Positions 44,034 to 62,861 of a stretch of 64,000 bases of DNA are shown here, piece after piece. The DNA is from Sphingopyxis sp. (GTDB lineage Bacteria; Pseudomonadota; Alphaproteobacteria; Sphingomonadales; Sphingomonadaceae): NCBI RefSeq assembly GCF_036675685.1, contig NZ_JAKFEM010000042.1, positions 55,880 through 119,879 on the forward strand, written 5' to 3'. Below the pieces are notes generated by a model. It saw nothing but the letters and a program-made list of their open reading frames with translations, was not told the origin of the DNA and searched no databases. The position numbers and the translations under genes are program-made. How positions within the stretch are numbered: the stretch's first letter is position 1; each line of letters starts with the position of its first letter.

Positions 44034-44046
44034 GTCGGCTCCCCGC

Positions 44047-45750: not shown

Positions 45751-45764
45751 GACGACGCTCCTTT

Positions 45765-45854: not shown

Positions 45855-45863
45855 CGCGTCACC

Positions 45864-46930: not shown

Positions 46931-46949
46931 GCATATGTTTTTCATATGC
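46931..46949. promoter_or_regulatory. GCATATG-TTTTT-CATATGC element (two CATATG units 11 bp apart) upstream of the porin-kdp gene string
   Basis: Read directly from the sequence. It lies about 110 nt upstream of the porin start and is the only strongly AT-rich element in this intergenic region. The 11-bp spacing fits binding sites of an OmpR-family regulator such as KdpE. Confidence 0.35.
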
Positions 46950-46979
46950 AGGCACGATTTCGCGCCAACCCGGAAAGCC

Positions 46980-47327: not shown

Positions 47328-47525
47328 ATCTGTCTCCTTCTTGTGTTTGTCCCGGGAGAGGGGCTGCCCGCTTTCGCGCGCGATGCCCGATTAGGCAAAC
47401 CCATATAGGAAAAAAGTGGCGGCCATATTTTGCGGTCGCAATATCGCGGGCGATATGGTCATGGAGGCGATGCGTTTGGCGCGCGCCGATGGCGCGTATC
47501 GACCGGATCGAAAGGTATTGATCGG

Positions 47526-48569: not shown

Positions 48570-48586
48570 AAATTGCCCGCGAGTTT

Positions 48587-48793
48587 TCAGCCGCGCGGCT
48601 TGACGGTCACCCAAACATGCACCGTCGCCGCGAATTTACCCGGTGCCGGCTTGCCGACGTCGATCCGCTCGGCGGTGACCAGTTCGCCGGTCGCGAGGTT
48701 GAAGCTGGCCCAGGGCTTCGGCATGCGGCCGAAGCTCATCGTCTGGATCGGCTGGCCGGTGGCGGTGTTCATGATCGTTGCGTTGATACCCAT
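48587..48793 (-). CDS. Hypothetical 68-aa protein
   Basis: Track ORF with a strongly GC3-biased codon pattern, 48 nt downstream of the D-aminoacylase stop on the same strand. There is no obvious ribosome-binding site and I recognise no family. Confidence 0.35.
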   Translation of the reverse strand: MGINATIMNTATGQPIQTMSFGRMPKPWASFNLATGELVTAERIDVGKPAPGKFAATVHVWVTVKPRG

Positions 48794-48841
48794 CGCGCGC
48801 CGGTAGCGGCGGCCCGCCGATTCTGTCCAGCGCGAAGACGG

Positions 48842-50545
48842 CTATCCGCATCGCTTCCAGCCGGCACCGCGCACCGCGCGCCCCGGTGTGGTGCCGCGAT
48901 GTTCGCCGTCCTGCAGCACCGCGACGCCGTTGACGAAGACGTCGCGCATGCCGACCGAATATTGGTGCGGCTTCTCGAAGGTCGACCGGTCGCCGATCGT
49001 CGCGGGATCGAAGACGACGACATCGGCGTAATAGCCGGGCTTCAGCGCGCCGCGATCCGCGATGCCCAGATTGGTCGCGGGAAGGGTGGTGAGCCGGTAC
49101 ACCGCCTGCTCGAGCGAGATCAGCTTCTCGTCGCGGACATAGCGGCCGAGCAGGCGCGCGAAATTGCCATAGCTGCGCGGGTGGGCGCCCGATTTCAGGA
49201 AGACGCCCTCGGTTGCTTGCGATGCGGCGTCGGATCCGAAGCTCATCCACGGCAGCTTGACCTGCGCGCGGACATTATCCTCCGACATCAGGAAATAGAC
49301 GGTGCCGACGCGCGAGCCATCCTCGACGACGAGGTCCATCGCGGTTTCCTCGGCGCTCTTGCCGCGCAGCTTGGCGACTTCGGCGAGGGTCTTGCCGGTC
49401 AGCGGCTTCAGCTTCTCATTCTTGAACCCGACGAGGATCATCTTGTCGGCGCCCGCGCCGAGGTAAAGATTTTCCCAGTCGCTGCCGGGCTTCTGCATTT
49501 CGGCGGCGACGCGCGCGCGGGTCGCGGGGTCCTTCAGCCGCTTGATCCATTCCTCCAGCCCGCCGGCCTGCACCCAGGTCGGCATCGCGGCGTCGAGCCC
49601 GGTCGCCCCGGCGGTATAGGTGTACATGTCGGTCGTGATCCGCTGGCCCGCGGCGCGCGCGGCCTCGATCTTGCCGACGACGGCGGGGAGTTTGCCCCAA
49701 TTGCTCCGCCCCGCCATCTTGAGATGATAGATTTCGGCTGGCGCGCCCGAGCGCCGCGATATTTCGATCAACTCGTCGACCGCTTGCTCGATCCGGTCGC
49801 CCTCGGAACGCATGTGGCTGATATACATGCCGCCGCATTTCGCGGCCTCGCTGGTCAACGCGACGAGCTCGTCGGTCTCGGCATAGGAGCCGGGCGCATA
49901 GATGAGCGAGCTGCCGACGCCGAGCGCGCCCTCGTTCATCGCCTGCCGGACGAGCGCGCGCATCCGCATGAGCTGTTCGGCGTCGGGATCGACATCGCCT
50001 TCGCCCAGTTCATGCACGCGCACCGTCGCCGCGCCGACAAAGCTTGCAACATTGGTCGAAATCCCGCGTTTCTCCAGATACGCCAGATAGTTGCCGAGGC
50101 TCGTCCATTCGACCGGATATTTGATATCGCCCTGGCGCTCGACCTCCTGCGCCTTCATCGTGGCATTGAGCGGCCCCATCGACCAGCCTTCGCCCATCAC
50201 CTCGAGCGTGACACCCTGCCTTATGTCGCTCTGGCTCCTCGGGTCGGCGATCAGCGATTCGGTCGCCCAGCTCAGCATGTTGATGAAGCCCGGGGCGACC
50301 GCCATCCCGCGCGCCGACATTTCGGTGCGCCCCTTGCCGTCGACTTTGCCCACCGCGACGATGCGGTCGCCCTTGATCGCGATATCGCCGGTGACCGGCG
50401 GCTTGCCCGACCCGTCGTATAGCGTGCCGCCGCGGATCACGATGTCATAGCCGGGCGCGGCGGGCTTTGCGGCGACGGAGGCCGAAAGCAGCACCGAGCT
50501 GCACAGCAGCATCACGGAAGGGGCGAAGGGCCGGTGCGCTGTCAT
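48842..50545 (-). CDS. N-acyl-D-amino-acid deacylase (D-aminoacylase) family amidohydrolase, secreted (paralog 2)
   Basis: 567 aa with a signal peptide. YDIVIRGGTLYDGSGKPPVTGDIAIKGDRIVAVG..APGFINMLSW parallels the 936-2585 protein. Confidence 0.85.
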   Translation of the reverse strand: MTAHRPFAPSVMLLCSSVLLSASVAAKPAAPGYDIVIRGGTLYDGSGKPPVTGDIAIKGDRIVAVGKVDGKGRTEMSARGMAVAPGFINMLSWATESLIADPRSQSDIRQGVTLEVMGEGWSMGPLNATMKAQEVERQGDIKYPVEWTSLGNYLAYLEKRGISTNVASFVGAATVRVHELGEGDVDPDAEQLMRMRALVRQAMNEGALGVGSSLIYAPGSYAETDELVALTSEAAKCGGMYISHMRSEGDRIEQAVDELIEISRRSGAPAEIYHLKMAGRSNWGKLPAVVGKIEAARAAGQRITTDMYTYTAGATGLDAAMPTWVQAGGLEEWIKRLKDPATRARVAAEMQKPGSDWENLYLGAGADKMILVGFKNEKLKPLTGKTLAEVAKLRGKSAEETAMDLVVEDGSRVGTVYFLMSEDNVRAQVKLPWMSFGSDAASQATEGVFLKSGAHPRSYGNFARLLGRYVRDEKLISLEQAVYRLTTLPATNLGIADRGALKPGYYADVVVFDPATIGDRSTFEKPHQYSVGMRDVFVNGVAVLQDGEHRGTTPGRAVRGAGWKRCG

Positions 50546-50568
50546 CCAAATTCTCCGGGAAAAGGCGG

Positions 50569-51204
50569 TTAGCCGTGCAGGCTCATGAGTGAGTCCATCA
50601 GCCCGTCGTCGGCGCTTGAGCAGACGCCGAGCACCAGCGCCTCCTCAAATCCCGCGGCGACGACATAGGCGTGGCCCATCGACGAATCGAGATAGATGCC
50701 CTGTCCGGTCTTGAGTGACACCGGGTCGTAGAATTCGGTGTGGATCTCGATCGCGCCCTCGAGGACATAGATGAATTCCTCGCCCTGGTGCCGCACCAGC
50801 TCGCCGAATTCGCTCGCGCTGTGGGCGCGAATCCGGGTGATGATCGGGATCATCCGCTTTTGCCGCAGGTCGGTGCAGAGATAATGATAGTCGTAATTGT
50901 CGGTCGTGACGCGCACCGCCTGATCGATGGTCCCGATGCTCCGCCGCCCCGTCACGCGCGGCGCACCATTCTCCTCATCCTCGGCGAACAGGTCCGACAT
51001 GCGGATGCTGAGACGCTGGCTGAGCTGTTGCAATTTGTCATAACTCAGCGTCAGGCGGTCGTGCTCGACCTTCGACAGCGTCGAAACCGGGATGCCCGAT
51101 TTCGCGCTCATCTCCTTGAGTGTCCAGCCGTTTCGCGAGCGAATGCCCTTCATCACGGTGCCGAGCGTGGGCGGGGTTGAACGATCCGCCATCAGTTTTT
51201 CCAT
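50569..51204 (-). CDS. XRE-family HTH plus cupin transcriptional regulator
   Basis: It has an HTH_3 domain (IRSRNGWTLKEMSAKSGIPVSTLSKVEHDR) and a C-terminal cupin_2 domain (HQGEEFIYVLEGAIEIH...GQGIYLDSSMGH). It lies 23 nt upstream of the D-aminoacylase gene. ATG 51192 is an alternative start. Confidence 0.85.
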   Translation of the reverse strand: MEKLMADRSTPPTLGTVMKGIRSRNGWTLKEMSAKSGIPVSTLSKVEHDRLTLSYDKLQQLSQRLSIRMSDLFAEDEENGAPRVTGRRSIGTIDQAVRVTTDNYDYHYLCTDLRQKRMIPIITRIRAHSASEFGELVRHQGEEFIYVLEGAIEIHTEFYDPVSLKTGQGIYLDSSMGHAYVVAAGFEEALVLGVCSSADDGLMDSLMSLHG

Positions 51205-51211
51205 TCCATAT

Positions 51212-51236
51212 TTGACAATTTTCCAATCAGGATCAT
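51212..51236 (+). promoter_or_regulatory. Promoter/operator motif copy 1: TTGACAATTTTCCAATCAGGATCAT
   Basis: 21 of 25 positions are identical to 54437-54461. It starts with a consensus -35 TTGACA. It lies in the divergent region between the XRE-cupin regulator and the S12 hydrolase gene. Confidence 0.6.
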
Positions 51237-51332
51237 TATGTCCCTATCGGGCTAATAGTTATCAGCCCTTGGTAAGGGGTCGCGCGACTTGCCGCAAGGC
51301 TTGACCGTCGCGCCAGAGAAAAGGGGAAAGCG

Positions 51333-53312
51333 ATGCGTTTCATCCGTAAGGCGATGATCGGGCTGGCGGCTCTTGCCGCGCTGCCGCTGGCGGCGCAGGG
51401 GCCGGTGCCGGCTCCGGCCGCGAAAAAGGTCGAAGCTGCTGCAATGCCGGCGGCAAAGGCGCCCGCAGCGCCCGTCGCGCTCGATGCCAAGGATCTCGAA
51501 GCATGGCTCGACGGTTACCTGCCTTATGCGCTCGAACGCGCGCGTATCCCGGGCGCGGTCGTCGTTGTCGTTCGCGGCAATCAGGTCGTGCTCGAAAAGG
51601 GTTATGGCTTTTCCGACGTCGCGAAGCGCGCGCCCGTCCTGCCCGAGACCACGCTTTTCCGTCCGGGATCGGTGTCGAAACTCCTCACCTGGACCGCGGT
51701 GATGCAGCAGGTCGAAGCGGGCAAGATCGACCTCGACAAGGACATCAACGCCTATCTCGATTTCAAGATTCCGCCCTTTGAAGGCAAGCCGGTCACGATG
51801 CGTAACATCATGACGCACACCGCCGGTTTCCAGGAATCGATACGTCACCTGATCAGCAGCGATCCCAAGGCCGTCATGACGCTCAAGAAGCAGATGCCGC
51901 TGGCGCTGCCCGACCGCGTGTTCGCGCCCGGGACGACCCCCGCCTATTCCAACTATGCGACCGCGCTCGCGGGTTATATCGTCGAGCGGGTCAGCGGCGA
52001 GCCGTTCGACAATTATATCGAAAATCATATCTTCACGCCGCTCGGCATGACGCATTCGACGTTCCGCCAGCCGCTTCCGGCGCGGCTCGCGCCGCACATG
52101 TCGAAGGGCTATCCCGACGTCACGCAGAAACCCAAGCCGTTCGAGATTATCGTTCCCGCGCCCGCAGGCAGCCTGTCGGCGAGCGGTTCCGACATGGGCA
52201 AGTTCATGATCGCGCACCTGGGTGACGGTGCGGGGCTGATGAAGCCCGAAACCGCGAAACAGATGCACGACTTCAAAGCCCCCGGCGTCGGTCCGCTCAA
52301 CAGCATGGCGCTTGGTTTTTACGAACAATGGGTCAACGGCCACCGCGCGATCGCGCATGGCGGCGACACCGTGTGGTTCCACTCCTATCTTTGGTTGTTC
52401 CCCGATGCCGACATCGGCGTCTACATCTCGATGAACAGCGCCGGCAAAGCGGGCGACGCGGGCGCGGTGCGTAGCGCCTTGTTCCACAAATTCGCCGACC
52501 GCTACCTGCCCGGCGCCGAAAAGCCTGGCACCGTTGATGCCAAGACCGCCGCCGCGCATGCGCAGATGATGGCCGGCAATTATGTCAGCAGCCGCGGCAG
52601 CTTCACCAATTTCGCGAGCCTGTTCGGCCTGCTCGGACAGGCGACGATCTCGCTGACCGAGGATGGCAAGATCACGCTGCCGGCGCTCGACGGCCTTGGC
52701 GCCGGCGCGCGCGACTGGGTCGAGGTCGAGCCCTTTGTGTGGCGCGACACGGGCACGGGCGAACGGCTTGCCGCCGAAGTGAAGGACGGCCGGGTCGTTC
52801 GCTGGAGCATCGATGCCGGTTCGCCTTTCATGGTGTTCGAGCCTGCCCCGGCGAGCGTCAATGCCGCGTGGCTCAATCCGGCGCTGATCTTCGCCTTCGC
52901 GATCATCCTGCTCGCGGCGCTGGCGTGGCCGGTGCGCGCGCTGGTGCGGCGCAGCTTCAAGGCCGAATTCGCGCTCGAGGGCAAGGCGCGGCGTGCCTAC
53001 CGCCTGTCGCGCATCTTCGCCTGGGCAGCGATTGCGGCGCTGGCCGGCTGGATCGGCCTGATCGCCGCCTTCTCGGCCGATATTGGCAGCCTCGGCGGTC
53101 CGCTCGACTGGTTGATCCAGCTGCTGCGCATCCTGACCCCGGTCGCGGCCTTCGGCCTGCTCGCCACGGCTGGCTGGCACCTGTGGCTCAGCATCAAGGG
53201 CAAGCGCCGCTGGACGATGAAGCTCGGCGCGGTGCTGCTGATCCTTGCCGCTGCGGTGCTCGTCTGGGTGACGCTCGCCTTCCATCTCTACGGCTTCGGG
53301 ATGGTCTATTGA
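51333..53312 (+). CDS. S12 (beta-lactamase/D-aminopeptidase family) serine hydrolase with a C-terminal 4-TM domain
   Basis: It has a signal peptide. The SxxK motif is GSVSKLLT and the YxN motif is AYSNY. The last ~170 aa contain four hydrophobic helices (LIFAFAIILLAALAW, IFAWAAIAALAGWIGLIAAF, ILTPVAAFGLLATAGW, LGAVLLILAAAVLVWVTLAF). Confidence 0.85.
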   Translation: MRFIRKAMIGLAALAALPLAAQGPVPAPAAKKVEAAAMPAAKAPAAPVALDAKDLEAWLDGYLPYALERARIPGAVVVVVRGNQVVLEKGYGFSDVAKRAPVLPETTLFRPGSVSKLLTWTAVMQQVEAGKIDLDKDINAYLDFKIPPFEGKPVTMRNIMTHTAGFQESIRHLISSDPKAVMTLKKQMPLALPDRVFAPGTTPAYSNYATALAGYIVERVSGEPFDNYIENHIFTPLGMTHSTFRQPLPARLAPHMSKGYPDVTQKPKPFEIIVPAPAGSLSASGSDMGKFMIAHLGDGAGLMKPETAKQMHDFKAPGVGPLNSMALGFYEQWVNGHRAIAHGGDTVWFHSYLWLFPDADIGVYISMNSAGKAGDAGAVRSALFHKFADRYLPGAEKPGTVDAKTAAAHAQMMAGNYVSSRGSFTNFASLFGLLGQATISLTEDGKITLPALDGLGAGARDWVEVEPFVWRDTGTGERLAAEVKDGRVVRWSIDAGSPFMVFEPAPASVNAAWLNPALIFAFAIILLAALAWPVRALVRRSFKAEFALEGKARRAYRLSRIFAWAAIAALAGWIGLIAAFSADIGSLGGPLDWLIQLLRILTPVAAFGLLATAGWHLWLSIKGKRRWTMKLGAVLLILAAAVLVWVTLAFHLYGFGMVY

Positions 53313-54319
53313 TGGCGACGCAGCGCATGCGGGAATTGACGCTCGACCTTCGGGTCGAGCGCTTTCCCTATCACCAGCCTTTTCGCATTTCGGGGCATGT
53401 CTTCACCGAAACCGCGCTGCTTGTCGCCGAACTGTCGGACGGCGAGCATGTCGGGCGCGGCGAGGGCGCGGGGGTCTATTATCTCGGCGACGACATCGAC
53501 CATATGCTGGCCGAGGCGACGCGCGTCCGCGGCGACATCGAAGCCGGCGCGACGCGCGAGGAATTGCAACATCTTTTGCCGCCGGGCGGGGCGCGGAACG
53601 CGCTCGACTGCGCCTTCTGGGAGCTGGAGGCCAAACAGGCGGGGCGCCCGGTTTGGGAACTCGCCGGGCTGAAGCCGCCCAAGGCGCTGCGCTCGACGCT
53701 GACGCTCGGTGCGGACAGCGCCGGGAATATGGCGAAGGCCGCGCTGGCGATCGATCCCGAGGCGCCGATCAAGGTCAAGTTGACCGGCGATTTGAGCGAC
53801 GACATCGCACGCATCGTCGCGATCCGCACCGCGCGTCCGCATGCGTGGATCGGGGTCGACGCGAATCAGGGCTATGACGTGGCGACGCTCGTCGAGCTGC
53901 TCCCCGTGCTGGTGTCGACGCGCGTCGCGCAGCTTGAACAGCCGCTCAAACGCGGGCGCGAGGACGATCTCGACGGGCTCAAGCGGCCCTTGCCCTTCGT
54001 CGCCGACGAAAGCGCGGTGTCGCTCGCCGACACCGCTTCGCTCGTCGGGCGGTTCGATGTCGTCAATATCAAGCTCGATAAATGCGGCGGGTTGACCGAG
54101 GGGCTGGCGATCGCGCAGCAGGCGAAGCTTCTGGGGCTCGATGTGATGGTCGGCAACATGATGGGCTCCAGCCTGTCGATGGCGCCATCCTTCGTGCTCG
54201 GCCAGCTTTGCGACATCGTCGACCTCGACGGCCCGACCTTTCTCGCGCGCGATCGTGTGCCGGGTGTCGAATATCGCGGCGGGATGATTCACTGCCCCGC
54301 GGAAATTTGGGGAGGGTAA
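53312..54319 (+). CDS. dgcA: Enolase-superfamily dipeptide-epimerase-like enzyme (N-acetyl-D-Glu racemase DgcA-like / L-Ala-D/L-Glu epimerase-like)
   Basis: TGATG overlap with the upstream gene. KxK motif IKVKLTG, second catalytic Lys in VNIKLDKCGG, and metal ligands in VDANQG / LEQP / ADES. About 335 aa. Confidence 0.7.
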   Translation: MATQRMRELTLDLRVERFPYHQPFRISGHVFTETALLVAELSDGEHVGRGEGAGVYYLGDDIDHMLAEATRVRGDIEAGATREELQHLLPPGGARNALDCAFWELEAKQAGRPVWELAGLKPPKALRSTLTLGADSAGNMAKAALAIDPEAPIKVKLTGDLSDDIARIVAIRTARPHAWIGVDANQGYDVATLVELLPVLVSTRVAQLEQPLKRGREDDLDGLKRPLPFVADESAVSLADTASLVGRFDVVNIKLDKCGGLTEGLAIAQQAKLLGLDVMVGNMMGSSLSMAPSFVLGQLCDIVDLDGPTFLARDRVPGVEYRGGMIHCPAEIWGG

Positions 54320-54328
54320 AGTCCTCAC

Positions 54329-54406
54329 CGTCATCCCGGCGAAGGCCGGGATCTCGCCCTTCCGTTCTGACGCGCCGTCGAGATCCCGGCCTTCGCCGGG
54401 ATGACG
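54329..54406. repeat. REP-like element: perfect 28-bp inverted repeat CGTCATCCCGGCGAAGGCCGGGATCTCG, 22-bp spacer
   Basis: The arms are at 54329-54356 and 54379-54406. Each arm also contains the internal hairpin CCCGGC-GAAG-GCCGGG. It lies 10 nt after the dgcA-like stop. This sequence type is the common alphaproteobacterial intergenic palindrome. Confidence 0.8.
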
Positions 54407-54420
54407 AAATAAATGGTTCA

Positions 54421-54462
54421 TATTGTCCTAAATGGGTTGACAATTTTCTAATTAGGACAATA
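54421..54462 (+). promoter_or_regulatory. Promoter/operator motif copy 2 (TTGACAATTTTCTAATTAGGACAAT, 54437-54461) inside an 11-bp perfect inverted repeat TATTGTCCTAA-N20-TTAGGACAATA
   Basis: Read directly from the sequence. The -35 TTGACA is at 54437-54442. The inverted-repeat arms are at 54421-54431 and 54452-54462. It lies about 40 nt upstream of the M19 dipeptidase start. Confidence 0.6.
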
Positions 54463-54500
54463 GTCTTGAAATTGAAATCAACATAAGAGGGGAGGCTGGA

Positions 54501-55643
54501 ATGGCAGCGTCATTCCCAATAACGCGCCGTGCGGTCATCGCGGGCGCGGTCGGGGTCGCTTTGTCCGCGCCGATGGTGAACCGGGGAGCCTATGCGTTTG
54601 CCGCGGCGCCGGGGCGCAGCTATTCGCGCCGCGCGGTCGATCTCGTCGCTTCGTCGCTGGTGATCGACATGCTCGCGCCGCTCAAGATCACGATGTCGGA
54701 GGACTATGTCGCGCATCGGCTGACCGACGCCGAAGCGGCCGAGTTCCAAGCGTCGGGCATCACCGGCTTTCACAACGCCTATGGCCTCGGCGGACCCGAT
54801 GCGAAGAGCCAAGCGCTCGCCTTCCTCGCCGGCTGGCAGGGCTTTGCCGGGCGCAACAGCCATGTCTTCACGCTCGTCGACACCGTCGCCGATCTCGATC
54901 GCGCCAAGGCCGACAAGAAATGCGCGGTCATCATGGGCATCCAGAATGCCGAGCATTTCGAGAAGATCGAGGATGTCGCGCTGTTCCGCCGCCTCGGCCT
55001 CCGCTGCGCGCAGCTCACCTATAACAGCCAGAATATGATCGGGTCGGGTAGCACCGAACGCGTCGATGGCGGGGTTAGCGATTATGGCGCTGCGATCATC
55101 GCCGAGATGGAAAAGCAGCGCATGCTCGTCGACGTCTCGCACTGCGGCGACAAGACGACGCTCGACGCCATCGCCATCGCCAAGGGACCGATCGCGATCA
55201 CCCACAGCAACGCGCGCGCGCTGGTCGACCATCCGCGCGTCAAGACCGACGCGGCGATCAAGGTGCTCGCGGCGAAGGGCGGCGTCATGGGTATAACCGG
55301 GGTGCGCATGTTCGTCCGCCTGACCGATCCGACCAACGTCGGGCATATGGCCGACCATATCGACCATGTCGCAAAGCTTGTCGGGATCGACCATGTCGGC
55401 ATCGGCTCCGACGCCGATCTCCATGGCTATGACGACATGATCCCGGCCGAATATGCGGCGCTCAAGGGGCTCTACAAGGGCAGCTACGCCTTTCGCGACA
55501 AGATCGACATCGACGGCTTTGACCACCCCCTCAAGGTCTTTGACCTGACCGAGGAGCTGATCCGCCGCGGCTATTCCAACGAAAACATCCGGGCCGTGCT
55601 CGGTGGCAATTTCCGCCGCCTGCTCGCCCAAGTCTGGGGGTAA
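54501..55643 (+). CDS. M19 membrane dipeptidase family protein, Tat signal
   Basis: GAGGGGAGG ribosome-binding site. The twin-arginine leader is MAASFPITRRAVIAGAVGVAL. Renal-dipeptidase-family motifs are present: VIDMLAP, DVSHCGDKT, THSNARAL and GIGSDAD. Confidence 0.85.
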   Translation: MAASFPITRRAVIAGAVGVALSAPMVNRGAYAFAAAPGRSYSRRAVDLVASSLVIDMLAPLKITMSEDYVAHRLTDAEAAEFQASGITGFHNAYGLGGPDAKSQALAFLAGWQGFAGRNSHVFTLVDTVADLDRAKADKKCAVIMGIQNAEHFEKIEDVALFRRLGLRCAQLTYNSQNMIGSGSTERVDGGVSDYGAAIIAEMEKQRMLVDVSHCGDKTTLDAIAIAKGPIAITHSNARALVDHPRVKTDAAIKVLAAKGGVMGITGVRMFVRLTDPTNVGHMADHIDHVAKLVGIDHVGIGSDADLHGYDDMIPAEYAALKGLYKGSYAFRDKIDIDGFDHPLKVFDLTEELIRRGYSNENIRAVLGGNFRRLLAQVWG

Positions 55644-55647
55644 GGCA

Positions 55648-57834
55648 ATGAAACAGGGACTCTTTATCACGGGAAGCATCGCCGCATTGATGGCCGCTAT
55701 GCCGGCGCAGGCGCAGGAACCGGTCGCCGTCGAGGCGACGGGCGAAATCGTCGTCACCGCGCAAAAGCGCGTGCAGAATGTGCAGGACGTGCCGATCTCG
55801 ATCGCCGTCGTCAGCGGTGAGGAGCTGCAGGAACAGGGTTCGGCCTCGCTTGTCGACTATGCGGGTTACGTTCCTGGCATGAACGTCAGCAACAGCGGCA
55901 CGCCGGGGCAGACGACGATCACGCTGCGCGGCGTCGCGCCGCTCAACAACAGCCAGACCGTCGGCATCTATCTCGACGACGCGCCCGTGGGCTCAAGCGC
56001 GATCTACAACCGCGCCGGGGCGTTCACAATCGACCTCATGCCCTATGATCTTCAACGGATCGAGGTGCTGAAGGGGCCGCAGGGCACGCTCTATGGCGCG
56101 AGCTCGATCGGCGGTCTGGTGAAATATGTCACCGTCCAGCCCGACACCCGCGAATTCAAGGTGCGCGCCGGGGTCGAAGGCTTTGCGATCAAGGGCGGCG
56201 ACGGGCTCGGCTGGGGGGCGCAGGCGATGGTCAATGTGCCGATCGTCGAGGACAGGCTGGCGGTCAGCGGCAGTTTCGCGTGGCGCAGCACGCCGGGCTG
56301 GGTCGACAGCGTCAACAATGCTGCGCTGAAAGACCAGAACGACTATGAGCAGCGCGGCGGCCGCGTCGCGCTGTTGTGGACGCCGACGCCCGAACTCAGC
56401 GTGAAGCTTGCCGCGATCTGGCAGTCGCTCGATTCCGAAGGCAATGGTCTTTATGCCGCCGACCTCACCGGCAAGCGGCTCGGCGATGGGCGCTCGTACA
56501 ATAATTATGTCCCCGAATCTTTCGACGTCGATCTCGACTATTATTCGGCGACGATCGACTATGATTTCGGCGCCGCGACGCTGACCTCGGCGACGACCTA
56601 CAGCAAGACGCAGAGCGCGCAGGTGCAGGACGCGAGCTATGCCTTTGGCGTGCTCTTCCCGCTGCTCACCGGCGGCGCGATTCCGCCGGGCATCACGCCT
56701 TTCGCGCTCGATCTCGGCCTCAAGAAATGGACGCAGGAGGTGCGTCTCGCCTCGCCGAGCGGCGGGCGTTTCGAATGGCTGATCGGCGGCTTCTTCACCG
56801 ATGAGAAGACGAGCAATTCGCAGCTTGTCCGCTCGTTCGATATGGCGGGCAATCCGATCGCACCGCTCGATCCGCTCGCGACCGTCGGCCTGCCCGCGAC
56901 CTACAAGGAATATGCGGTCTTCGGTAACGCGACCTTCAAATTGAGCGAGCAGTTCGAAATCACCGGCGGGCTGCGCTGGGCACGCAACGACCAGACCTTC
57001 CGCCAGATCAGCTCGGGCGCGATCGTGCCGCAGGCCGATGATCCCGGCAAATCGTCGGAGGATGTCTTCACCTATTCGATCAGTCCGCAGTTCCACATCA
57101 ATGAGGATGCGATGCTCTATGCGCGTCTCGCCACCGGCTATCGGCCCGGCGGCCCGAACGTCATCGTTCCCAATGTGCCGCCGACGGTCGATGCCGACCG
57201 GATGAAAAACTATGAGGTCGGGCTGAAGGCCGATTTCGCTGATCGCATGGTCTCGGTCGATGTCGCGCTCTTCTTGATGGACTGGACCGACATTCAGGTC
57301 GTGCGTTCCTTTGGCGGCGTGTCGGGCGGGGCGAACGGCGGCAAGGCGAGGAGCAAGGGCATCGAGGGCAGCTTCGCGCTGCGCCCGGCGCCCGGCCTGA
57401 CGATCAGCGCGACGGGCAGCTACACCGACGCGGTGCTCAGCGAGGATGTGCCAGACATCAGCGGCGTCGACGGCGACCGCCTGCCCGCGGTGCCGAAGTT
57501 CAGCGGCGCGCTGCGCGCCGATTATGAGTTCGAACTCGGCAGCAGCAACAAGGGCAGCTTCGGCGCCGGCGTCCGTCACGCCAGCAGCCGGCTTTCGCTG
57601 GTCGAGAGCGACCCGCTCGTCGCACGCGCCAAACCCTACACGTCGGTTGACCTCAACGCCTCGATCACGTTCAACGATCACTGGACAGTGCGCGCCTATG
57701 CCCGCAACCTGTTCGACAACAAGGGCGAGATGGCGCGGTCGACGATGGCCGACGGACTCAACCGCCCGAGCTTCCTTGCGATTTCGCCGTTGCAGCCACG
57801 GACTATCGGCGTCGCGCTCGACATGGCCTTTTGA
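55648..57834 (+). CDS. TonB-dependent receptor
   Basis: ATG 55648 lies 4 nt after the dipeptidase stop. The signal peptide ends AMPAQAQE. The plug is IVVTAQKRVQNVQDVPISIAVVSGEELQ..ITLRGV. The barrel ends ...IGVALDMAF. Confidence 0.9.
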   Translation: MKQGLFITGSIAALMAAMPAQAQEPVAVEATGEIVVTAQKRVQNVQDVPISIAVVSGEELQEQGSASLVDYAGYVPGMNVSNSGTPGQTTITLRGVAPLNNSQTVGIYLDDAPVGSSAIYNRAGAFTIDLMPYDLQRIEVLKGPQGTLYGASSIGGLVKYVTVQPDTREFKVRAGVEGFAIKGGDGLGWGAQAMVNVPIVEDRLAVSGSFAWRSTPGWVDSVNNAALKDQNDYEQRGGRVALLWTPTPELSVKLAAIWQSLDSEGNGLYAADLTGKRLGDGRSYNNYVPESFDVDLDYYSATIDYDFGAATLTSATTYSKTQSAQVQDASYAFGVLFPLLTGGAIPPGITPFALDLGLKKWTQEVRLASPSGGRFEWLIGGFFTDEKTSNSQLVRSFDMAGNPIAPLDPLATVGLPATYKEYAVFGNATFKLSEQFEITGGLRWARNDQTFRQISSGAIVPQADDPGKSSEDVFTYSISPQFHINEDAMLYARLATGYRPGGPNVIVPNVPPTVDADRMKNYEVGLKADFADRMVSVDVALFLMDWTDIQVVRSFGGVSGGANGGKARSKGIEGSFALRPAPGLTISATGSYTDAVLSEDVPDISGVDGDRLPAVPKFSGALRADYEFELGSSNKGSFGAGVRHASSRLSLVESDPLVARAKPYTSVDLNASITFNDHWTVRAYARNLFDNKGEMARSTMADGLNRPSFLAISPLQPRTIGVALDMAF

Positions 57835-57854
57835 GCGGATTGGAGTTGGAAACG

Positions 57855-58895
57855 ATGAACGCGCCCATCGGCAGGCTGGCTGACAGCCTGACCCTGCCGC
57901 AACCCTATCTGCTGTTCCTCGGCGACACGACCGAGGCGGGCTATGCCAAGACCGCCTTCGGTCTCGCCGACTGGGCGGCCGACCGCTGCGTCGGCGAGCT
58001 CGCGATCACGGGCTGCACCGTCACCACCGGCCTGCCGCGCCTGTCGCCCGCCGAAGCGCGGGCGGCTGGGGCACGGTCGCTGGTGATCGGGGTCGCGAAC
58101 CAGGGCGGGGTGATCGGCGACAGCTGGATCGCCGCGCTGGTCGAGGCGATGGAGGCCGGGCTCGACATCGTCAGCGGGCTCCACGTCCGGCTGGCGAGCC
58201 TGCCCGTGCTGGCCGAGGCGGCGAAGCGTACCGGGCAGCGGCTGATCGACGTGCGCACCCCGCCGCCGTCGATCCCGATCGGCAATGGCCGCAAGCGCAG
58301 CGGCAAACGGCTGCTCACCGTCGGGACCGATTGCGCGCTCGGCAAGAAATATACCGCGCTCGCGCTGCATCGCGCGTTCGTCGAACGCGGCATCGACGCC
58401 GATTTTCGCGCGACCGGCCAGACGGGCATCATGATCGCGGGGGGCGGCATGCCGATGGACGCGGTGGTTTCGGATTTCGAGGCGGGGGCCGCGGAGATAT
58501 TGAGCCCCGACGCGCCCGATCATCATTGGGATCTGATCGAAGGGCAGGGGTCGATCTTCAACCCCGCCTATGCCGCGGTGTCGCTGGGGCTGCTTCATGG
58601 CAGCCAGCCCGATGTCTTCGTCGTCTGCCACGACCCGACGCGCAAGGTGATCCTCGGCATGGAAAGTTTCGCTCTGCCTTCGATCGAGGAGGTCATCGAC
58701 CTGACGATCCGCCTCGGCAGCCGCACCAATCCGGCGATCCGCTGCGGCGGCGTCAGCCTCAACACGTCGGCCTACGATGCCGACGCGGCCGAAGCCTTGA
58801 TGGCCGCCGAACGGCAGCGGCTTGGCCTTCCCGTCGCCGATCCGATCCGCGGCGGCGCGGCGTTCGACGCGCTCGTCGAAAATATTCTCGCGTGA
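57855..58895 (+). CDS. dgcN: DUF1611-family protein (N-acetyltransferase DgcN-like)
   Basis: ATG 57855 follows GGAG. The sequence PYLLFLGD...AKTAFGLADW...LVIGVANQGG...LLTVGTDCALGKKYTAL...GQGSIFNPAY matches my recollection of DUF1611/DgcN proteins. Confidence 0.7.
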   Translation: MNAPIGRLADSLTLPQPYLLFLGDTTEAGYAKTAFGLADWAADRCVGELAITGCTVTTGLPRLSPAEARAAGARSLVIGVANQGGVIGDSWIAALVEAMEAGLDIVSGLHVRLASLPVLAEAAKRTGQRLIDVRTPPPSIPIGNGRKRSGKRLLTVGTDCALGKKYTALALHRAFVERGIDADFRATGQTGIMIAGGGMPMDAVVSDFEAGAAEILSPDAPDHHWDLIEGQGSIFNPAYAAVSLGLLHGSQPDVFVVCHDPTRKVILGMESFALPSIEEVIDLTIRLGSRTNPAIRCGGVSLNTSAYDADAAEALMAAERQRLGLPVADPIRGGAAFDALVENILA

Positions 58896-60031
58896 GTGTG
58901 GGCGAGACGGGCGGCAGGTCGAGCTGGTTCCAGCGCTTCCTGCTGCCCGGGTTTGCGCTGAAGGCCGTCATTATCGGCGGCGGATATGCGACGGGGCGCG
59001 AGCTCGCCGAATATTTTGTTCCCGCGGGGCCGTGGGGCGGGCTCGCCGCGATGCTGCTCGCGACGCTTGTCTGGAGCGTCGTAGCGGCGCTGACCTTCGC
59101 GCTCGCGCGCTCGCTTGGAGCCTATGATTATCGCGGCTTTTTCAAGGGGCTTCTCGGCCCTGCCTGGGTCGCGTTCGAGGTCGCGTACATCATCTTTGTC
59201 ATTCTGATCCTTGCGGTGTTTGGCGCCGCAGCAGGCGCGATCGGTGCCGCGACCTTCGGCTGGCCTGAGGCGCTTGGGTCGGTGTTGCTCGCGGTCGCGA
59301 TTGTCGCGGTGATTGCATGGGGCACGGGCGCGGTCGAGCGGATGTTCAAATACGTCTCGATCCTGCTCTATGCCGTTTACGGGCTTTTCCTTGTCCTCGC
59401 GCTCGCGAGCTTCGGCGGGCTGATCGGGCGGGGCTTTGCCGATGCGCCGCCGCCGTCGGGCAACTGGATGGCGGGCGGGCTGACCTATGCGAGTTACAAT
59501 ATCGTTGGTGCCGTGGTGATCCTGCCGGTGCTGCGCCATCTGACCAGCCAGCGCGACGCGGTGGTCGCCGGGCTGATCGCGGGGCCGCTGTCGATGCTGC
59601 CCGCGATCCTCTTCTTCGTCGCGATGATGGCCTTCTACCCCGCGATCGGCGCCGAGACGCTGCCGTCGGACTTCCTGCTGCGTCAGATGACGGTGCCGGG
59701 CTTCCATGTCCTCTTTCAGGTGATGATCTTCGCCGCGCTCCTCGAAAGCGGCGCCGGGTCGGTGCATGCGATCAACGAGCGGATTTCGGGCGCGATCGAA
59801 AGCCGCGGCCGGCCGGCGCTGACGCCCGGCGGGCGCGCCATCATCGGCGCGGTGATCCTGACGGGCTGCATGTTCGTCGCGGCGCGCATCGGCCTCGTCG
59901 ACCTGATCGCCAGCGGATACCGCTTCCTCGCCTGGCTGTTCCTGATCGTCTTCGTCGCGCCGCTGCTGACCATCGGTGTCTGGCACCTGCTTCGCCGTCC
60001 CTCGCTTCCGCAAATGGAGTCCGTGCCATGA
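58892..60031 (+). CDS. Polytopic inner-membrane protein, YkvI-like putative transporter
   Basis: Uses the frame of ORF 58331..60031. The GTG 58892 start overlaps the dgcN-like stop (GTGA); GTG 58898 is an alternative. FQRFLLPGFALKAVIIGGGYATGRELAEYF and ~10 hydrophobic segments are present. The family assignment is tentative. Confidence 0.65.
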   Translation: MSVGETGGRSSWFQRFLLPGFALKAVIIGGGYATGRELAEYFVPAGPWGGLAAMLLATLVWSVVAALTFALARSLGAYDYRGFFKGLLGPAWVAFEVAYIIFVILILAVFGAAAGAIGAATFGWPEALGSVLLAVAIVAVIAWGTGAVERMFKYVSILLYAVYGLFLVLALASFGGLIGRGFADAPPPSGNWMAGGLTYASYNIVGAVVILPVLRHLTSQRDAVVAGLIAGPLSMLPAILFFVAMMAFYPAIGAETLPSDFLLRQMTVPGFHVLFQVMIFAALLESGAGSVHAINERISGAIESRGRPALTPGGRAIIGAVILTGCMFVAARIGLVDLIASGYRFLAWLFLIVFVAPLLTIGVWHLLRRPSLPQMESVP

Positions 60032-61605
60032 AAGCCGCTCGTCTGATCGCCCTGTCGTTGATGCTTTCGGTGGCCGCGCCTGCCTGGGCCGAACCGCCTG
60101 CCAATATCGGCGAAAGCGTCGAGGCGCTGCGCAAGAAGGTCGGCGCCGCCGGCGTATCGATCGCGATCGTCGAGGATGGCAAGACGACACTCTCGCGCGG
60201 CTGGGGTGTACGCAAGATCGGCGAGCGTGCGCCGGTCGACGCGCAAACGATCTTCCAGACCGGATCGACCGGCAAGGCGATGACCGCGGCGGCGCTCGCG
60301 ATCCTCGTCGACGAGGGCAAGATCGCGTGGGACGATCCGGTGATCAAGCATATGCCGTGGTTCCGCATGTATGACGCGTGGGTGACGCGCGAGATCACGA
60401 TCCGCGACCTGCTCGTGCATCGCAGCGGACTCGGGCTGGGGCAGGGCGATTTGATGTTCGTGCCGCGCACACATTTGACCCGCAAACAGACCGTCGAGCG
60501 CGTCGCCTACCTCAAGCCGAAGACGAGTTTCCGCTCGGCCTATGCCTATGACAATATCCTCTATGCGGTCGCCGGCCAGCTGATCGAGGAAGTCACCGGG
60601 CAGACATGGGAAGCCTTCATGCGGACGCGCGTACTGCGCGCCGGCGGGATGAAAAACGCCACCAGCGACAGCGAAGACCGCTTCCGCATTCCCAATCGCT
60701 CATGGCCGCATGCGCGCCTGTCGGGATCGCTGCGCGGCCTCGGCCCGCAGGCGGCGCTCGACGAACGCGACGAGCTTGGCCGCAACGGCGCGCCCGCGGG
60801 CGGGCTCGCGCTCAGCGCCGACGACATGGCGGCGTGGCTCAAGATCCAGCTCGCGCACGGCGCGCTCCCGAACGGGAAGCGGTTGTTCAGTGAGGCGCAG
60901 GCGACCGAAATGTGGGCGCCGGTCACGCCGATGCCGATCACCCCGCTGCCCGACAGCCTCAAACCCGCACAGCCGATGCAGCAGGCCTATGCGCTCGGCT
61001 GGCAGGTGCAGGATTATCGCGGCCACCGCATCGTCCAGCACAGCGGCGGCGTCTTCGGCTCGATCACCCGCGTCGTGATGATCCCCGACAAAAATGTCGG
61101 TTTTGCGATCATGATGAACAGCGAGGACAGCGGGATGATCCTCGGTCTGACTTTCGACCTGCTCGATCATTATCTGGACCAGCCCGATTACGGCTGGACG
61201 ACCAAATGGCAGAGCTGGTTCGAGGAGCGGCTCGCGGGCGGCGAGGCGTTCTTGAAACAATCGAAAGCGTCGCCGGTGAAATCGGGACCGTCGCTCGCGC
61301 TCGCGGGCTATACCGGGCGCTACCGCGATCCCTGGTATGGCGACGTCGTGATCGGATCGGCGGCGAAGGGGCTGACGATCGATTTCACCTCGACCCCGCG
61401 GATGGCGGGACGGCTCAAGCATTGGCAATATGACAGCTTCGTCACCGACTTCGACGATCCGGCGATCGAACCCGCCTATGTGACCTTCGCGCTCGACGCC
61501 GACGGCAAGGTGACGGGCGTAACGATGAAGGCGGTGAGCCAGATCGCCGACTTCAGCTGGGATTATCACGACCTCGACCTGAAGCCGGTGGAGGACAAGA
61601 AGTGA
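60028..61605 (+). CDS. S12 (beta-lactamase family) serine hydrolase, secreted
   Basis: ATGA overlap with the upstream gene. The signal peptide is MKAARLIALSLMLSVAAPAWA. The SxxK motif is GSTGKAMT and the YxN motif is AYDNILY. It has a C-terminal lipocalin-like extension. Confidence 0.85.
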   Translation: MKAARLIALSLMLSVAAPAWAEPPANIGESVEALRKKVGAAGVSIAIVEDGKTTLSRGWGVRKIGERAPVDAQTIFQTGSTGKAMTAAALAILVDEGKIAWDDPVIKHMPWFRMYDAWVTREITIRDLLVHRSGLGLGQGDLMFVPRTHLTRKQTVERVAYLKPKTSFRSAYAYDNILYAVAGQLIEEVTGQTWEAFMRTRVLRAGGMKNATSDSEDRFRIPNRSWPHARLSGSLRGLGPQAALDERDELGRNGAPAGGLALSADDMAAWLKIQLAHGALPNGKRLFSEAQATEMWAPVTPMPITPLPDSLKPAQPMQQAYALGWQVQDYRGHRIVQHSGGVFGSITRVVMIPDKNVGFAIMMNSEDSGMILGLTFDLLDHYLDQPDYGWTTKWQSWFEERLAGGEAFLKQSKASPVKSGPSLALAGYTGRYRDPWYGDVVIGSAAKGLTIDFTSTPRMAGRLKHWQYDSFVTDFDDPAIEPAYVTFALDADGKVTGVTMKAVSQIADFSWDYHDLDLKPVEDKK

Positions 61606-62792
61606 AGCGCATCGCCGCCCTGCTGGCCGCGACGGCGCTATCCGCCTGTTCGGCGGGCGGTGATAAGCCGAAGGAACCCGAAGCGCCGCTCCACAGCCGG
61701 ATGCTCGTCCTCGACACGCATCTCGACACGCCGCTGCATTTCGAGCGGCAGGGGTGGAGTTTCGCCGACCGCCACGCGCTCGCCGATGACCTGTCGCAGC
61801 TCGACATCCCGCGGATGAAGGACGGCAATCTCGATGGCGGCTTCTTCGCCATCTATACCGACCAGGGGCCGCTCACGCCGCAGGGCTATGCCGCGGCGCT
61901 GGCGCATGCGCGGAAGCGGTCGGACCTGATCGACCGGACGATGGCGGCGCACGCTGATGCGATCGGTCCCGCGCTGACCGCCGACGATGCGCGGCGGCTG
62001 GACAAGGCGGGCAAGCTGATTGCGTTCAAGTCGATGGAGAACAGCTATCCGCTCGGCGAGGATCTGTCGCTGCTCGGCGAATTCTACAAAAAGGGCCTGC
62101 GGCTCGCGGGGCCGGTGCATTCGAAGAACAACCAGTTCGCCGACAGCGCGACCGACAAACCGCGCTGGAACGGGCTGAGCCCGCTCGGCAAGCAATGGGT
62201 CGCCGAAATGAACCGGCTCGGCATCGTGATCGACGCGAGCCACTCCTCGGACGCGACTTTCGACCAGCTGCTTGCGCTGTCGAAATATCCGATCCTGCTC
62301 TCGCACTCGAGTCTGCGCTCGGCGCACGACCATCCGCGCAACCTCGACGAAGGACGGCTGAAAACACTGGCGGCGAAGGGCGGCGCGATGTGCATCTCGA
62401 CCATCTTCATGTCCGAAATGAATATGTCGCCCGAACGCGCCGAACTGTTCGGGAAATATGAACATGCCGGCGAGCTGACGCCGGCCGAACAGGCCGATCT
62501 CACCCGCAAGTGGCGCGAACTCGACAAGCGCGAGCCGATGTGGGCGGCCGATTTCGAGGCCTATATAAAAATGGTGCTGCGCGCGATCGAGATCGGCGGG
62601 GTCGATCATATCTGCTTCGGCGCCGATTGGGACGGCGGCGGCGGCCTTGCCGGGATCGAGGATATTTCGGCGCTGCCCAAGGTCACCGAACGGCTGAAGG
62701 CCGCGGGTTATTCGGACGCCGATATCGAGAAGATGTGGAGCGGCAATATCTTGCGCGTCGTCGCGGCGCAGGGGAAGGACGGCGGCCGCTAG
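61602..62792 (+). CDS. M19 membrane dipeptidase family lipoprotein
   Basis: The GTG start overlaps the upstream stop (GTGA). The lipobox is LAATALSAC. Motifs seen: VLDTHLDTP, DASHSSDAT, LSHSSLRS and FGADWDGGGG. Confidence 0.85.
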   Translation: MKRIAALLAATALSACSAGGDKPKEPEAPLHSRMLVLDTHLDTPLHFERQGWSFADRHALADDLSQLDIPRMKDGNLDGGFFAIYTDQGPLTPQGYAAALAHARKRSDLIDRTMAAHADAIGPALTADDARRLDKAGKLIAFKSMENSYPLGEDLSLLGEFYKKGLRLAGPVHSKNNQFADSATDKPRWNGLSPLGKQWVAEMNRLGIVIDASHSSDATFDQLLALSKYPILLSHSSLRSAHDHPRNLDEGRLKTLAAKGGAMCISTIFMSEMNMSPERAELFGKYEHAGELTPAEQADLTRKWRELDKREPMWAADFEAYIKMVLRAIEIGGVDHICFGADWDGGGGLAGIEDISALPKVTERLKAAGYSDADIEKMWSGNILRVVAAQGKDGGR

Positions 62793-62861
62793 GCCGGGCG
62801 GAGCGGACCCGAACAAGGCATTTGCTTATGCTGTGTTGCGGTTGTAATACGGCCGCTGAGC

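Follow-up and report, generated by a model that had tools for sequence, protein, structure and literature searches.

Positions 48842–62792 of the window, a 64,000-nucleotide stretch of Sphingopyxis sp. DNA (contig NZ_JAKFEM010000042.1), contain ten genes for a TonB-dependent receptor (TBDR), two S12-family serine hydrolases (S12A and S12B), two M19-family proteins (M19A and M19B), an amidohydrolase of the D-aminoacylase family, a DUF1611 protein, an enolase-superfamily racemase/epimerase, a YkvI-family permease and an XRE-type regulator with a cupin domain. Comparison with related genomes confirms that this locus is a real functional unit. The reading favoured here, held with somewhat better than even confidence, is that the locus serves regulated, envelope-spanning nutrient acquisition in the manner of polysaccharide utilization loci (PULs) and of carbohydrate utilization loci containing a TBDR (CUT loci), and that it is aimed at small peptides containing D-amino acids. 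Peptidoglycan stem peptides, which among the natural sources of such peptides are the most abundant, are a plausible leading candidate for the substrate. The frame-specific GC content at third codon positions (GC3) is of the coding type, about 0.8, in all ten gene models, in a window with a base composition of about 65% GC, and bears out the coordinates given for the ten genes in a preliminary description of this DNA. Hidden Markov model (HMM) searches of the ten proteins against Pfam and NCBIfam agree with every family call made there.

A scan of one genome per GTDB species with a 10-sequence DUF1611 alignment provided 80 loci from more than 589 matches, and 13 window proteins were compared by tblastn with 82 loci holding a DgcN/DUF1611 homologue. 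The DUF1611 protein is at least 62% identical to that of the window in 58 loci and 51–61% identical in the other 24, and gene content is bimodal between these close and distant loci. A TBDR homologue is present in 44 of the 58 close loci, directly upstream of the DUF1611 gene in 31 of them, whereas it is present in none of the 24 distant loci (Fisher p = 3e-11). Likewise absent from all 24 distant loci are the racemase (at least 50% identical in 43 of the 58 close loci), S12A (41/58), S12B (38/58), the regulator (37/58, with at least 55% identity and usually in the same divergent position), the M19A type (18/58), the M19B type (10/58) and the amidohydrolase (at least 50% identical in 12/58), and the YkvI-like permease is found in 35 close loci and 1 distant locus. 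Most of the distant loci have a racemase gene that is 29–49% identical to that of the window and usually lies immediately downstream of the DUF1611 gene, which is the classic dgcN-dgcA pair. When the open reading frames of the loci were clustered without supervision, the top eight clusters were the families of the window and the ninth was the POT/PTR2 family; nearly all genes of the related loci fall into these nine families, with S9 and S15 peptidases appearing now and then.

The preliminary description had named loss of synteny in relatives as grounds for giving up its proposal, and synteny is strongly retained in Sphingomonadales and in several gammaproteobacterial families. The whole string of genes is reproduced in Sphingomonas, whose TBDR is 72% identical to that of the window, and in Novosphingobium (TBDR 62% identical) only the first M19 gene of the string is missing. 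Carriers include Sphingomonadales, Rudaea/Rhodanobacteraceae, Steroidobacteraceae, Woeseiaceae, Povalibacter and Pseudoxanthomonas. Near-complete copies, with DUF1611 proteins 66–70% identical, also stand on contigs of metagenome-assembled genomes of Chthoniobacterales (L029) and Acetobacteraceae (L060 and L071), and these copies possibly reflect horizontal transfer or mis-binning. Some loci of Sphingobium, Sphingopyxis and Sandaracinobacteroides (among L013, L014, L016 and L022) have two DUF1611 genes; others among these four represent a variant that has no TBDR but combines a gene resembling D-aminoacylase with another amidohydrolase gene and a racemase gene, and Sphingopyxis LC81 seems to carry both types of locus.

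The plus-strand genes are co-directional, as previously described, but they do not form one continuous string. Since the 181-nucleotide gap at 54320–54500 holds an inverted repeat and a second promoter, there are two transcription units and not one. The upstream unit consists of the genes for S12A (51333–53312) and the racemase (53312–54319), and the downstream unit consists of those for M19A (54501–55643), the TBDR (55648–57834), the DUF1611 protein (57855–58895), the permease (58892–60031), S12B (60028–61605) and M19B (61602–62792). Direct reading of the sequence reproduces the four overlapping start/stop junctions that had been listed, namely TGATG at 53310–53314, GTGA at 58892, ATGA at 60028 and GTGA at 61602. 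On the minus strand, the gene for the regulator (50569–51204; Pfam HTH_3 and Cupin_2) is divergent from the S12A gene and is followed 23 nucleotides downstream by the amidohydrolase gene (48842–50545), with which it is probably co-transcribed.

The two best sigma-70-type sites of the region lie in front of the two plus-strand units. Promoter 1 (51212–51239, plus strand) is a 10/12 match that consists of TTGACA, a spacer of 16 nucleotides and CATTAT with the embedded motif TTGACAATTTTCCAATCAGGATCAT; it lies 8 nucleotides away from where the oppositely transcribed regulator gene starts and serves the S12A and racemase genes. Promoter 2 (54437–54464, plus strand), with the operator copy TTGACAATTTTCTAATTAGGACAAT, drives the genes from M19A through the TBDR to M19B. 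A 25-nucleotide motif, TTGACAATTTTCYAATYAGGAYMAT, is common to both promoters and spans the interval from −35 to −10. It occurs exactly twice in the window, compared with 0 copies expected by chance, and Sphingomonas sp. DG1-23 and Novosphingobium sp. PC22D carry it in both of the corresponding intergenic regions. The strict motif pattern has 28 copies in related loci, including gammaproteobacterial ones, all on the coding strand, and for 24 of them the next gene downstream is close by and was called as S12, M19, TBDR, racemase or DUF1611; the site equivalent to that of promoter 2 lies upstream of an M19 or TBDR gene in other genera. The symmetry of the operator is partial, with a best dyad value of 53%, and half-sites are not claimed. 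An 11-nucleotide inverted repeat, TATTGTCCTAA/TTAGGACAATA, is present at 54421–54431 and 54452–54462, with its right arm inside the promoter-2 motif. Because the whole 25-nucleotide motif tracks the XRE-cupin gene across taxa and promoter 2 lacks ATCATTAT, the idea that the ATCATTAT of promoter 1 is a Fur box was dropped.

The regulator has a weak similarity to PuuR (49 bits against an NCBIfam cut-off of 211). From the arrangement of the operators, we infer that the XRE-cupin protein represses both plus-strand units and its own amidohydrolase-containing operon. The inverted repeat between the racemase gene and promoter 2 (54329–54406, without strand) has 28-bp perfect arms and a 22-nucleotide spacer, and each arm is itself a small GC-rich hairpin, ATCCCGGC GAAG GCCGGGAT. 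The window has no other copy of the arm sequence, and none of the Rfam families matches it; the repeat may be a terminator, an insulator or an element resembling repetitive extragenic palindromes. Since an Rfam scan of 46900–63000 returned nothing besides one meaningless sub-threshold match to an internal ribosome entry site, this interval contains no riboswitch or known leader.

The TBDR is a protein of 728 residues, the size of a 22-strand receptor, in which all parts of a TonB-dependent receptor are present: a Sec-type signal peptide followed by the TonB-box-like sequence GEIVVTA, a plug (Pfam Plug, 83.6 bits), a TonB barrel (145 bits) and a C-terminus ending in LDMAF with a terminal Phe. 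It is 95–96% identical to proteins of Sphingopyxis sp. isolates, and an exact look-up of its sequence returned no identical record. No NCBIfam family reaches its cut-off, the siderophore receptor model TIGR01783 scoring 174 bits with 223.5 required. The TBDRs of the related loci form one family of about five subclades with 35–45% mutual identity and have no long match to the unrelated TBDRs taken as an outgroup. In close Sphingopyxis and Sphingomonas relatives (L006, L008 and L009), the slot between the M19A and DUF1611 genes is occupied by TBDRs of other subclades (59%, 40% and 39% identity), while the genes flanking the slot are still 83–93% identical, and the TBDR in the equivalent slot of Sphingopyxis KK2 is just 40% identical to that of the window. 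This pattern suggests that the receptor has been replaced in the manner of a cassette.

The permease is a polytopic membrane protein with about 11 transmembrane helices in its hydropathy profile, and it has no match in Pfam (E ≤ 10), NCBIfam or a PDB sequence search. Homologue searches gave only relatives at least 83% identical, and orthologues with 87–93% identity are named 'YkvI family membrane protein', the family of COG3949, at JGI, UniRef and NCBI. In Pyrococcus horikoshii, D-allo-Ile co-induces a YkvI-family gene and an amino-acid racemase (PMC13628549). A POT/PTR2 di/tripeptide transporter gene is present in 22 related loci (among L010–L057; for example, L017:6460–7827 and L019:5909–7285), usually right after the racemase gene. 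The locus of the window has no copy of it, and the inverted repeat, promoter 2 and M19A fill the equivalent position. The POT protein of these 22 loci is independent support for a peptide as the substrate.

The export signals, the membrane tail of the first S12 protein and the envelope topology predicted in the preliminary description are all recovered, and these features are kept in orthologues. S12A and S12B have Sec-type signal peptides and intact SxxK/YxN/HxG motifs in their translations (SVSK, YSN and HGG in S12A; STGK, YDN and HSG in S12B). S12A (Pfam Beta-lactamase, PF00144, 210 bits) ends in four hydrophobic transmembrane helices at about residues 507–659, a tail kept in nearly all S12A-type orthologues, and S12B (Beta-lactamase, 216 bits) has a C-terminal DUF3471 domain (93 bits). 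S12A is thus predicted from these features to be a periplasmic hydrolase tethered to the inner membrane, and S12B to be soluble in the periplasm. Among solved structures, S12A matches Pab87 best (105 bits) and, after it, IS11, Flp, alkaline D-peptidase and R61, and S12B matches IS11, Flp, Pab87, ClbP, alkaline D-peptidase, FmtA and D-amino acid amidase. These closest structures are of mixed kinds, including the D-peptidase Pab87 and the esterase IS11 as well as Flp, alkaline D-peptidase and R61.

With 246 bits, M19A scores well above the cut-off of 26 of Pfam PF01244 (Peptidase_M19), and so does M19B with 291 bits, and of the two dipeptidases proposed earlier, M19B is canonical, whereas the Tat-exported M19A lacks the alpha-site metal ligands. 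M19B has a lipobox (LSAC) and a full set of HxD, Glu, His, His and Asp zinc ligands (THLD, MENS, SHSS, SHSS and GADWD), and both the lipobox and the ligand columns are conserved in orthologues. It matches the Caulobacter dipeptidase 2rag with 430 bits and Sco3058 with 133 bits in PDB comparisons; Sco3058-type M19 enzymes favour L-Xaa-D-Xaa dipeptides. M19A has the twin-arginine motif TRRAVIAG and reads VIDMLAP instead of HxD, with Gln148 at the position of the metal-bridging Glu (Glu123 of Sco3058 in the alignment). The twin arginine, VIDMLAP and GIQNA occur in all M19A-type orthologues (L001–L039), which form a conserved subfamily. The nearest PDB entry of M19A is the uncharacterised protein 2i5g (145 bits), followed by Sco3058 (93 bits). 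Without HxD and with Gln at the bridging position, M19A is not assured of dipeptidase activity, and it is possibly mononuclear or no dipeptidase at all.

The minus-strand amidohydrolase had been called a secreted D-aminoacylase. Its family homology and Sec signal agree with this, whereas the HxH motif and the Cys ligand are absent. It matches Pfam Amidohydro_3 (PF07969) with 69.5 bits, A. faecalis D-aminoacylase with 262 bits and the N-acyl-D-Glu deacylase Bb3285 with 230 bits, and its best NCBIfam match is below cut-off. It reads GFINMLSW where relatives show DxHxH (IDPHTH or IDLHSH in paralogues), whereas both His residues further downstream and the Asp are retained. GEGWS stands at what we take to be the GNCG Cys-ligand position, which was placed with reference to the A. 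faecalis enzyme and is not shown by the aligned paralogues. A second Amidohydro_3 gene in the window (498–2585) retains the HxH motif (IDPHTH). In the slot of the amidohydrolase gene, Sphingomonas DG1-23 has a penicillin-amidase-family gene and Novosphingobium has DAO and FMN_red genes; from its distribution, the D-aminoacylase-family protein is an accessory part of the locus and does not belong to its core.

The DUF1611 protein and the racemase have no export signal. DgcN and DgcA are their top-scoring NCBIfam models, and the preliminary description had presented them as a DgcN/DgcA-like pair. The folds and the catalytic residues uphold this, whereas the equivalog scores and the 20s loop set the pair apart. 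The DUF1611 protein matches the Rossmann-like domain PF17396 (DUF1611_N) with 86.5 bits, the P-loop domain PF07755 (DUF1611) with 245 bits and PDB 7xrj with 341 bits. Its homologues have 346 residues, which fits the ATG at 57855; with this most likely start, in place of the alternative TTG at 57831, the gene does not overlap the TBDR stop codon. Against the NCBIfam model of the D-glutamate N-acetyltransferase DgcN (NF041892) it scores 451 bits with a cut-off of 480, and the racemase (Pfam MR_MLE_N/C) scores 357 bits against the model of the N-acetyl-D-Glu racemase DgcA (NF042940; cut-off 400) and 223 bits against that of the L-Ala-D/L-Glu epimerase YcjG (NF011708; cut-off 343). A Rudaea member of the TBDR-linked clade also stays below the cut-offs (DgcN 444 and DgcA 381 bits), whereas the plain dgcN-dgcA pairs of Bosea, Myxococcus and Amorphus exceed them (DgcN 519–536 and DgcA 473–480 bits).

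The racemase matches PDB 4gfi with 211 bits and YcjG with 188 bits, and its subfamily is a sister both of DgcA and of the L-Ala-D/L-Glu epimerases. Its conserved columns (KVKLTG, VDANQG, LEQPL, VADES and NIKLDKCGG) keep the KxK motif, the Asp/Glu/Asp ligands and the second Lys. The 20s loop of the window racemase reads FRISGHVFTE, and that of all members of the TBDR-locus clade reads FRISG[HYF]VF[TE], whereas canonical DgcA, YcjG and 4gfi have F[TV]ISRGx[KR]TE. The DxD motif, which in dipeptide epimerases binds the N-terminal ammonium group of the dipeptide, is present in the racemase (VDLDGP) and in canonical DgcA too, and is therefore uninformative as a discriminator between dipeptide epimerases and DgcA. 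The DUF1611 and racemase genes of the window are not adjacent but lie in separate transcription units 3.5 kb apart. On these comparisons, the pair is best described as a co-diverged sister subfamily of DgcN/DgcA with a predicted function. Because of the scores below cut-off and the different 20s loop, conversion of D-Glu is extrapolated from the sister clade, and the substrate of the pair could be D-Glu or something related to it.

These features can be combined into the following putative route. The TBDR would draw scarce oligopeptides over the outer membrane with energy supplied by TonB. In the periplasm, tethered S12A, soluble S12B and lipoprotein M19B, together with the atypical M19A and the amidohydrolase, would trim them to free D- and L-amino acids and dipeptides. 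The YkvI-family permease, with a POT symporter as well in the 22 related loci, would take these products into the cytoplasm, where the DUF1611 acetyltransferase and the racemase would turn the D-acidic amino acid, most likely D-Glu, into the L-form by way of its N-acetyl derivative. The XRE-cupin protein would hold both promoters repressed through the shared operator over the −35 to −10 interval until a metabolite bound to its cupin domain released it. What is directly observed is the set of genes, the topology signals, the synteny across classes, the cis-element common to both promoters and the placement of the subfamilies; the substrates, the way in which the flux runs and the repressing action of the regulator would follow from them only by extrapolation. 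In agreement with the D-peptide assignment, the nearest characterised relatives of the four enzyme families are D-specific, Pab87, D-aminoacylase, Bb3285 and the Sco3058-type dipeptidase being among them.

Several observations weigh against this assignment. For every enzyme, the specificity is projected from what its family does. The S12 proteins are distant from their solved relatives, with scores of only about 50–105 bits, and the S12 family also takes in esterases and beta-lactamases. M19A and the amidohydrolase, without alpha-site metal ligands, may lack the hydrolase activities attributed to them, and the DgcN/DgcA scores below threshold and the altered 20s loop mean that the substrate of the pair may not be D-Glu. 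The closest solved structure of the TBDR is FyuA (122 bits), so that the receptor has no informative characterised relative, and 14 of the 58 close loci have no TBDR within 10 kb. The YkvI label of the permease rests on annotation in other databases, and its AlphaFold model, built from 22 near-identical sequences, is unusable (pLDDT 44, pTM 0.38). The locus encodes no muropeptide-processing enzyme and no evident enzyme cutting the gamma-D-Glu-diaminopimelate (DAP) isopeptide bond. In about 50 related loci there is likewise no N-acetylmuramic acid (MurNAc)-L-Ala amidase, LD-carboxypeptidase, gamma-D-Glu-DAP peptidase, NagZ or AmpG, and neither the window locus nor the related loci contain glycan-processing genes for peptidoglycan. 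The envelope pathway for D-peptides envisaged in the preliminary description is thus supported by the families, the topology and the synteny, but peptidoglycan is only one possible source of the peptides.

The absence of a peptidoglycan-specific enzyme from every locus would also be expected if the same machinery handled other D-compounds, such as non-ribosomal (lipo)peptides, N-acyl-D-Asn or D-Gln prodrug fragments set free by antibiotic-producing organisms, cyanobacterial peptides (microcystin fragments) or N-acyl-D-amino acids, from which deacylase-type enzymes would strip the acyl caps. The divergent slot does hold an acyl-amide hydrolase, of the D-aminoacylase family here and of the penicillin-amidase (Ntn acylase) family in Sphingomonas DG1-23, and the layout of S12A, an S12 domain followed by transmembrane helices, resembles that of the N-acyl-D-Asn peptidase ClbP. 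A 2012 genome-context survey guessed from the adjacency of D-aminoacylase genes that some TonB-dependent transporters (TBDTs) take N-acyl-D-amino-acid derivatives (PMC3400609). However, the deacylase is accessory and atypical, ClbP is a weak match far from the best one of the S12 proteins, and the broad spread of the locus in soil and sediment suits a ubiquitous substrate more than particular natural products, and these other D-compounds, taken together, are considered unlikely, though worth keeping in view. A general locus for all-L oligopeptides, with the DUF1611/racemase pair as housekeeping enzymes or as an L-Ala-D/L-Glu-type dipeptide epimerase, would be in keeping with the POT transporters and S9/S15 peptidases of related loci. 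The racemase retains DxD and is related to 4gfi, presumably deposited with L-Ala-L-Glu bound, but the same DxD motif in canonical DgcA removes its power to discriminate. TonB-dependent oligopeptide import is established for RagAB of Porphyromonas (bioRxiv 10.1101/755678). Such a locus would not explain why genes resembling dgcN and dgcA are tightly linked to a TBDR gene in both classes and would disregard the D-specificity of the characterised relatives, and it is given a low probability.

Detoxification or catabolism of beta-lactams or other mimics of D-Ala-D-Ala, in which S12 and M19 proteins would open the ring and amidases would remove side chains, appears very improbable. The S12 proteins match class C beta-lactamase and AmpH models weakly (61–86 bits), but such scores are far under the cut-offs (e.g., 74 against 415 bits). 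The mammalian carbapenem-hydrolysing enzyme is a member of M19, and the penicillin-amidase-family gene of Sphingomonas DG1-23 would suit such a function; a TBDR that brought in the toxic compound would, however, work against resistance, no role would be left for the POT, YkvI and DgcN/DgcA-like genes, and the regulator is of the catabolic XRE-cupin type, not AmpR or BlaR. Import of an iron-loaded peptide siderophore, with hydrolases that free the iron or recycle a backbone rich in D-amino acids, would account for the top TBDR matches, which are siderophore receptors (TIGR01783, 174 bits; FyuA, 122 bits), and for the label 'Fe transport' given to TBDR orthologues in public annotations. D-residues are common in peptide siderophores. 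Yet every siderophore-model score is below its cut-off, the locus shows no control of the FecIR or Fur type and lacks a reductase as well as a periplasmic binding protein with its ABC importer, the promoter operator is shared with a catabolic-type XRE-cupin regulator, and the loci encode amino-acid and peptide transporters, so that this function is given the slightest chance of those considered. The general L-peptide, beta-lactam and siderophore explanations each account for only a portion of the gene set. Acquisition of D-amino-acid peptides remains the favoured function.

The gene at 62862, immediately downstream of the locus, had been named a class A penicillin-binding protein (PBP) gene, and a transglycosylase domain and an STFK motif establish this identity. 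The adjacency of this PBP1A gene is not conserved, being confined to two or three close Sphingopyxis relatives, and was rejected as a functional link. To the left, at 46980–48569, a RidA/L-PSP gene on the minus strand and a proline-racemase-family gene on the plus strand (317 bits) fit the D-amino-acid theme; they were rejected as members of the locus, since they are not syntenic and other Sphingopyxis carry a different gene beside the amidohydrolase gene. Further to the left, a kdp cluster on the minus strand (38717–45858; kdpD, a KdpB-like P-type ATPase gene and kdpA) is followed by a gene for a Gcw_chp outer-membrane beta-barrel (45960–46895), and the genes at 31890–37578 specify two components of RND efflux, namely an outer-membrane factor of the OEP family and a pump of the AcrB family. 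At 3999–24984, a second locus built around a TBDR, a classical example of this architecture and apparently directed at alpha-mannosides or N-glycans, comprises genes for an MFS sugar transporter, three GH92 enzymes, GH125, GH2 and GH43 enzymes, a 1012-residue TBDR (11089–14127) and a ROK kinase.

D-amino acids and fragments of peptidoglycan account for much of bacterial necromass, of the organic nitrogen in soil and of dissolved organic matter in the sea, and they are degraded slowly. To our knowledge, little has been established about which bacteria capture such fragments and by which route these pass over the Gram-negative outer membrane. The locus offers a candidate in which a specific family of TBDRs is combined with a defined set of enzymes in the periplasm, two carriers in the inner membrane and a regulator with a recognisable operator, and it is genetically tractable, being carried by culturable Sphingopyxis, Sphingomonas, Novosphingobium and Rudaea. 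If the favoured function is correct, TBDR-centred utilization loci extend to a new substrate class. A broader proposal, tentative and regarded as possible rather than probable, is that the loci define an unrecognised widespread TBDT family for D-amino-acid peptides, such as stem peptides of peptidoglycan and comparable necromass, together with three new enzyme subfamilies, namely the DgcN/DgcA sister pair, whose substrate specificity would be altered, the alpha-site-less Tat-exported M19 proteins and the HxH-less D-aminoacylase-like amidohydrolases. Sphingomonadales and several gammaproteobacteria of soil and sediment would then mineralise the D-amino-acid fraction of organic nitrogen by a dedicated route. 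The NCBI models of DgcN and DgcA separate the free-standing pair from a sister clade that is linked to transporters, and the two metal-site-deficient hydrolase subfamilies are flagged for enzymology. The component ideas are known; the combination is rated as conserved, cross-class and tractable, with three subfamilies worth enzymology.

Among known systems, the D-glutamate catabolic pathway DgcN-DgcA(-DgcH), reportedly described by Yu et al. in 2023 (ISME J 17:537), shares with the locus the same two folds (DUF1611_N plus DUF1611, and an MR/MLE racemase), the cytoplasmic location of both proteins and the catalytic residues of the racemase. The canonical genes are adjacent, whereas those of the window are in separate units, score below the equivalog cut-offs and encode another 20s loop, and no DgcH-like cytoplasmic deacetylase is encoded in the window locus. 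The setting of a TBDR and peptidases is found only with the window type and with none of the 24 canonical pairs.

Pab87 of Pyrococcus abyssi is an S12 ('CubicO') D-aminopeptidase and DD-carboxypeptidase active on muropeptides; its gene adjoins genes for a D-aminoacylase and a peptide transporter, and a role in scavenging environmental D-amino-acid peptides of bacterial cell debris has been proposed (PMC2651629). Pab87 is an archaeal, cytoplasmic, self-compartmentalising octamer served by an ABC importer, whereas the S12 proteins of the window are predicted to be periplasmic or membrane-anchored, with entry by a TBDR and then YkvI or POT. Pab87 has a C-terminal lipocalin domain, to which the C-terminal DUF3471 of S12B may or may not correspond; its similarity to S12A is only about 100 bits, and its neighbourhood in Pyrococcus has no DgcN/DgcA-like pair. 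E. coli ycjG-mpaA and B. subtilis ykfABCD likewise combine an enolase-superfamily enzyme with peptidases and a peptide transporter for peptides containing D-Glu. The genes of murein recycling, namely MpaA (M14), YkfC (NlpC/P60), LdcA/YkfA (S66), Mpl and Opp/Mpp homologues, are present neither in the window locus nor in the related loci; murein recycling handles the cell's own wall, whereas a TBDR implies capture of an exogenous substrate.

A full-text literature search found no paper describing DUF1611/DgcN, D-peptidases or dipeptide epimerases together with a TonB receptor. In overall architecture, the locus is closest in kind to the CUT loci of Xanthomonas and Caulobacter, the SusCD PULs and RagAB of Porphyromonas gingivalis, which share the same succession of importer, hydrolases, transporter, catabolic enzymes and regulator. 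The locus of the window has no SusD/RagB-type lipoprotein partner, and its TBDR is of the classical proteobacterial type. The hydrolases of CUT loci and PULs are glycoside hydrolases, whereas those of the window are peptidases of families associated with D-stereospecificity. As in those loci, a TBDR is co-localised and co-regulated with hydrolases, a transporter, catabolic enzymes and a regulator, and this arrangement is retained across taxa.

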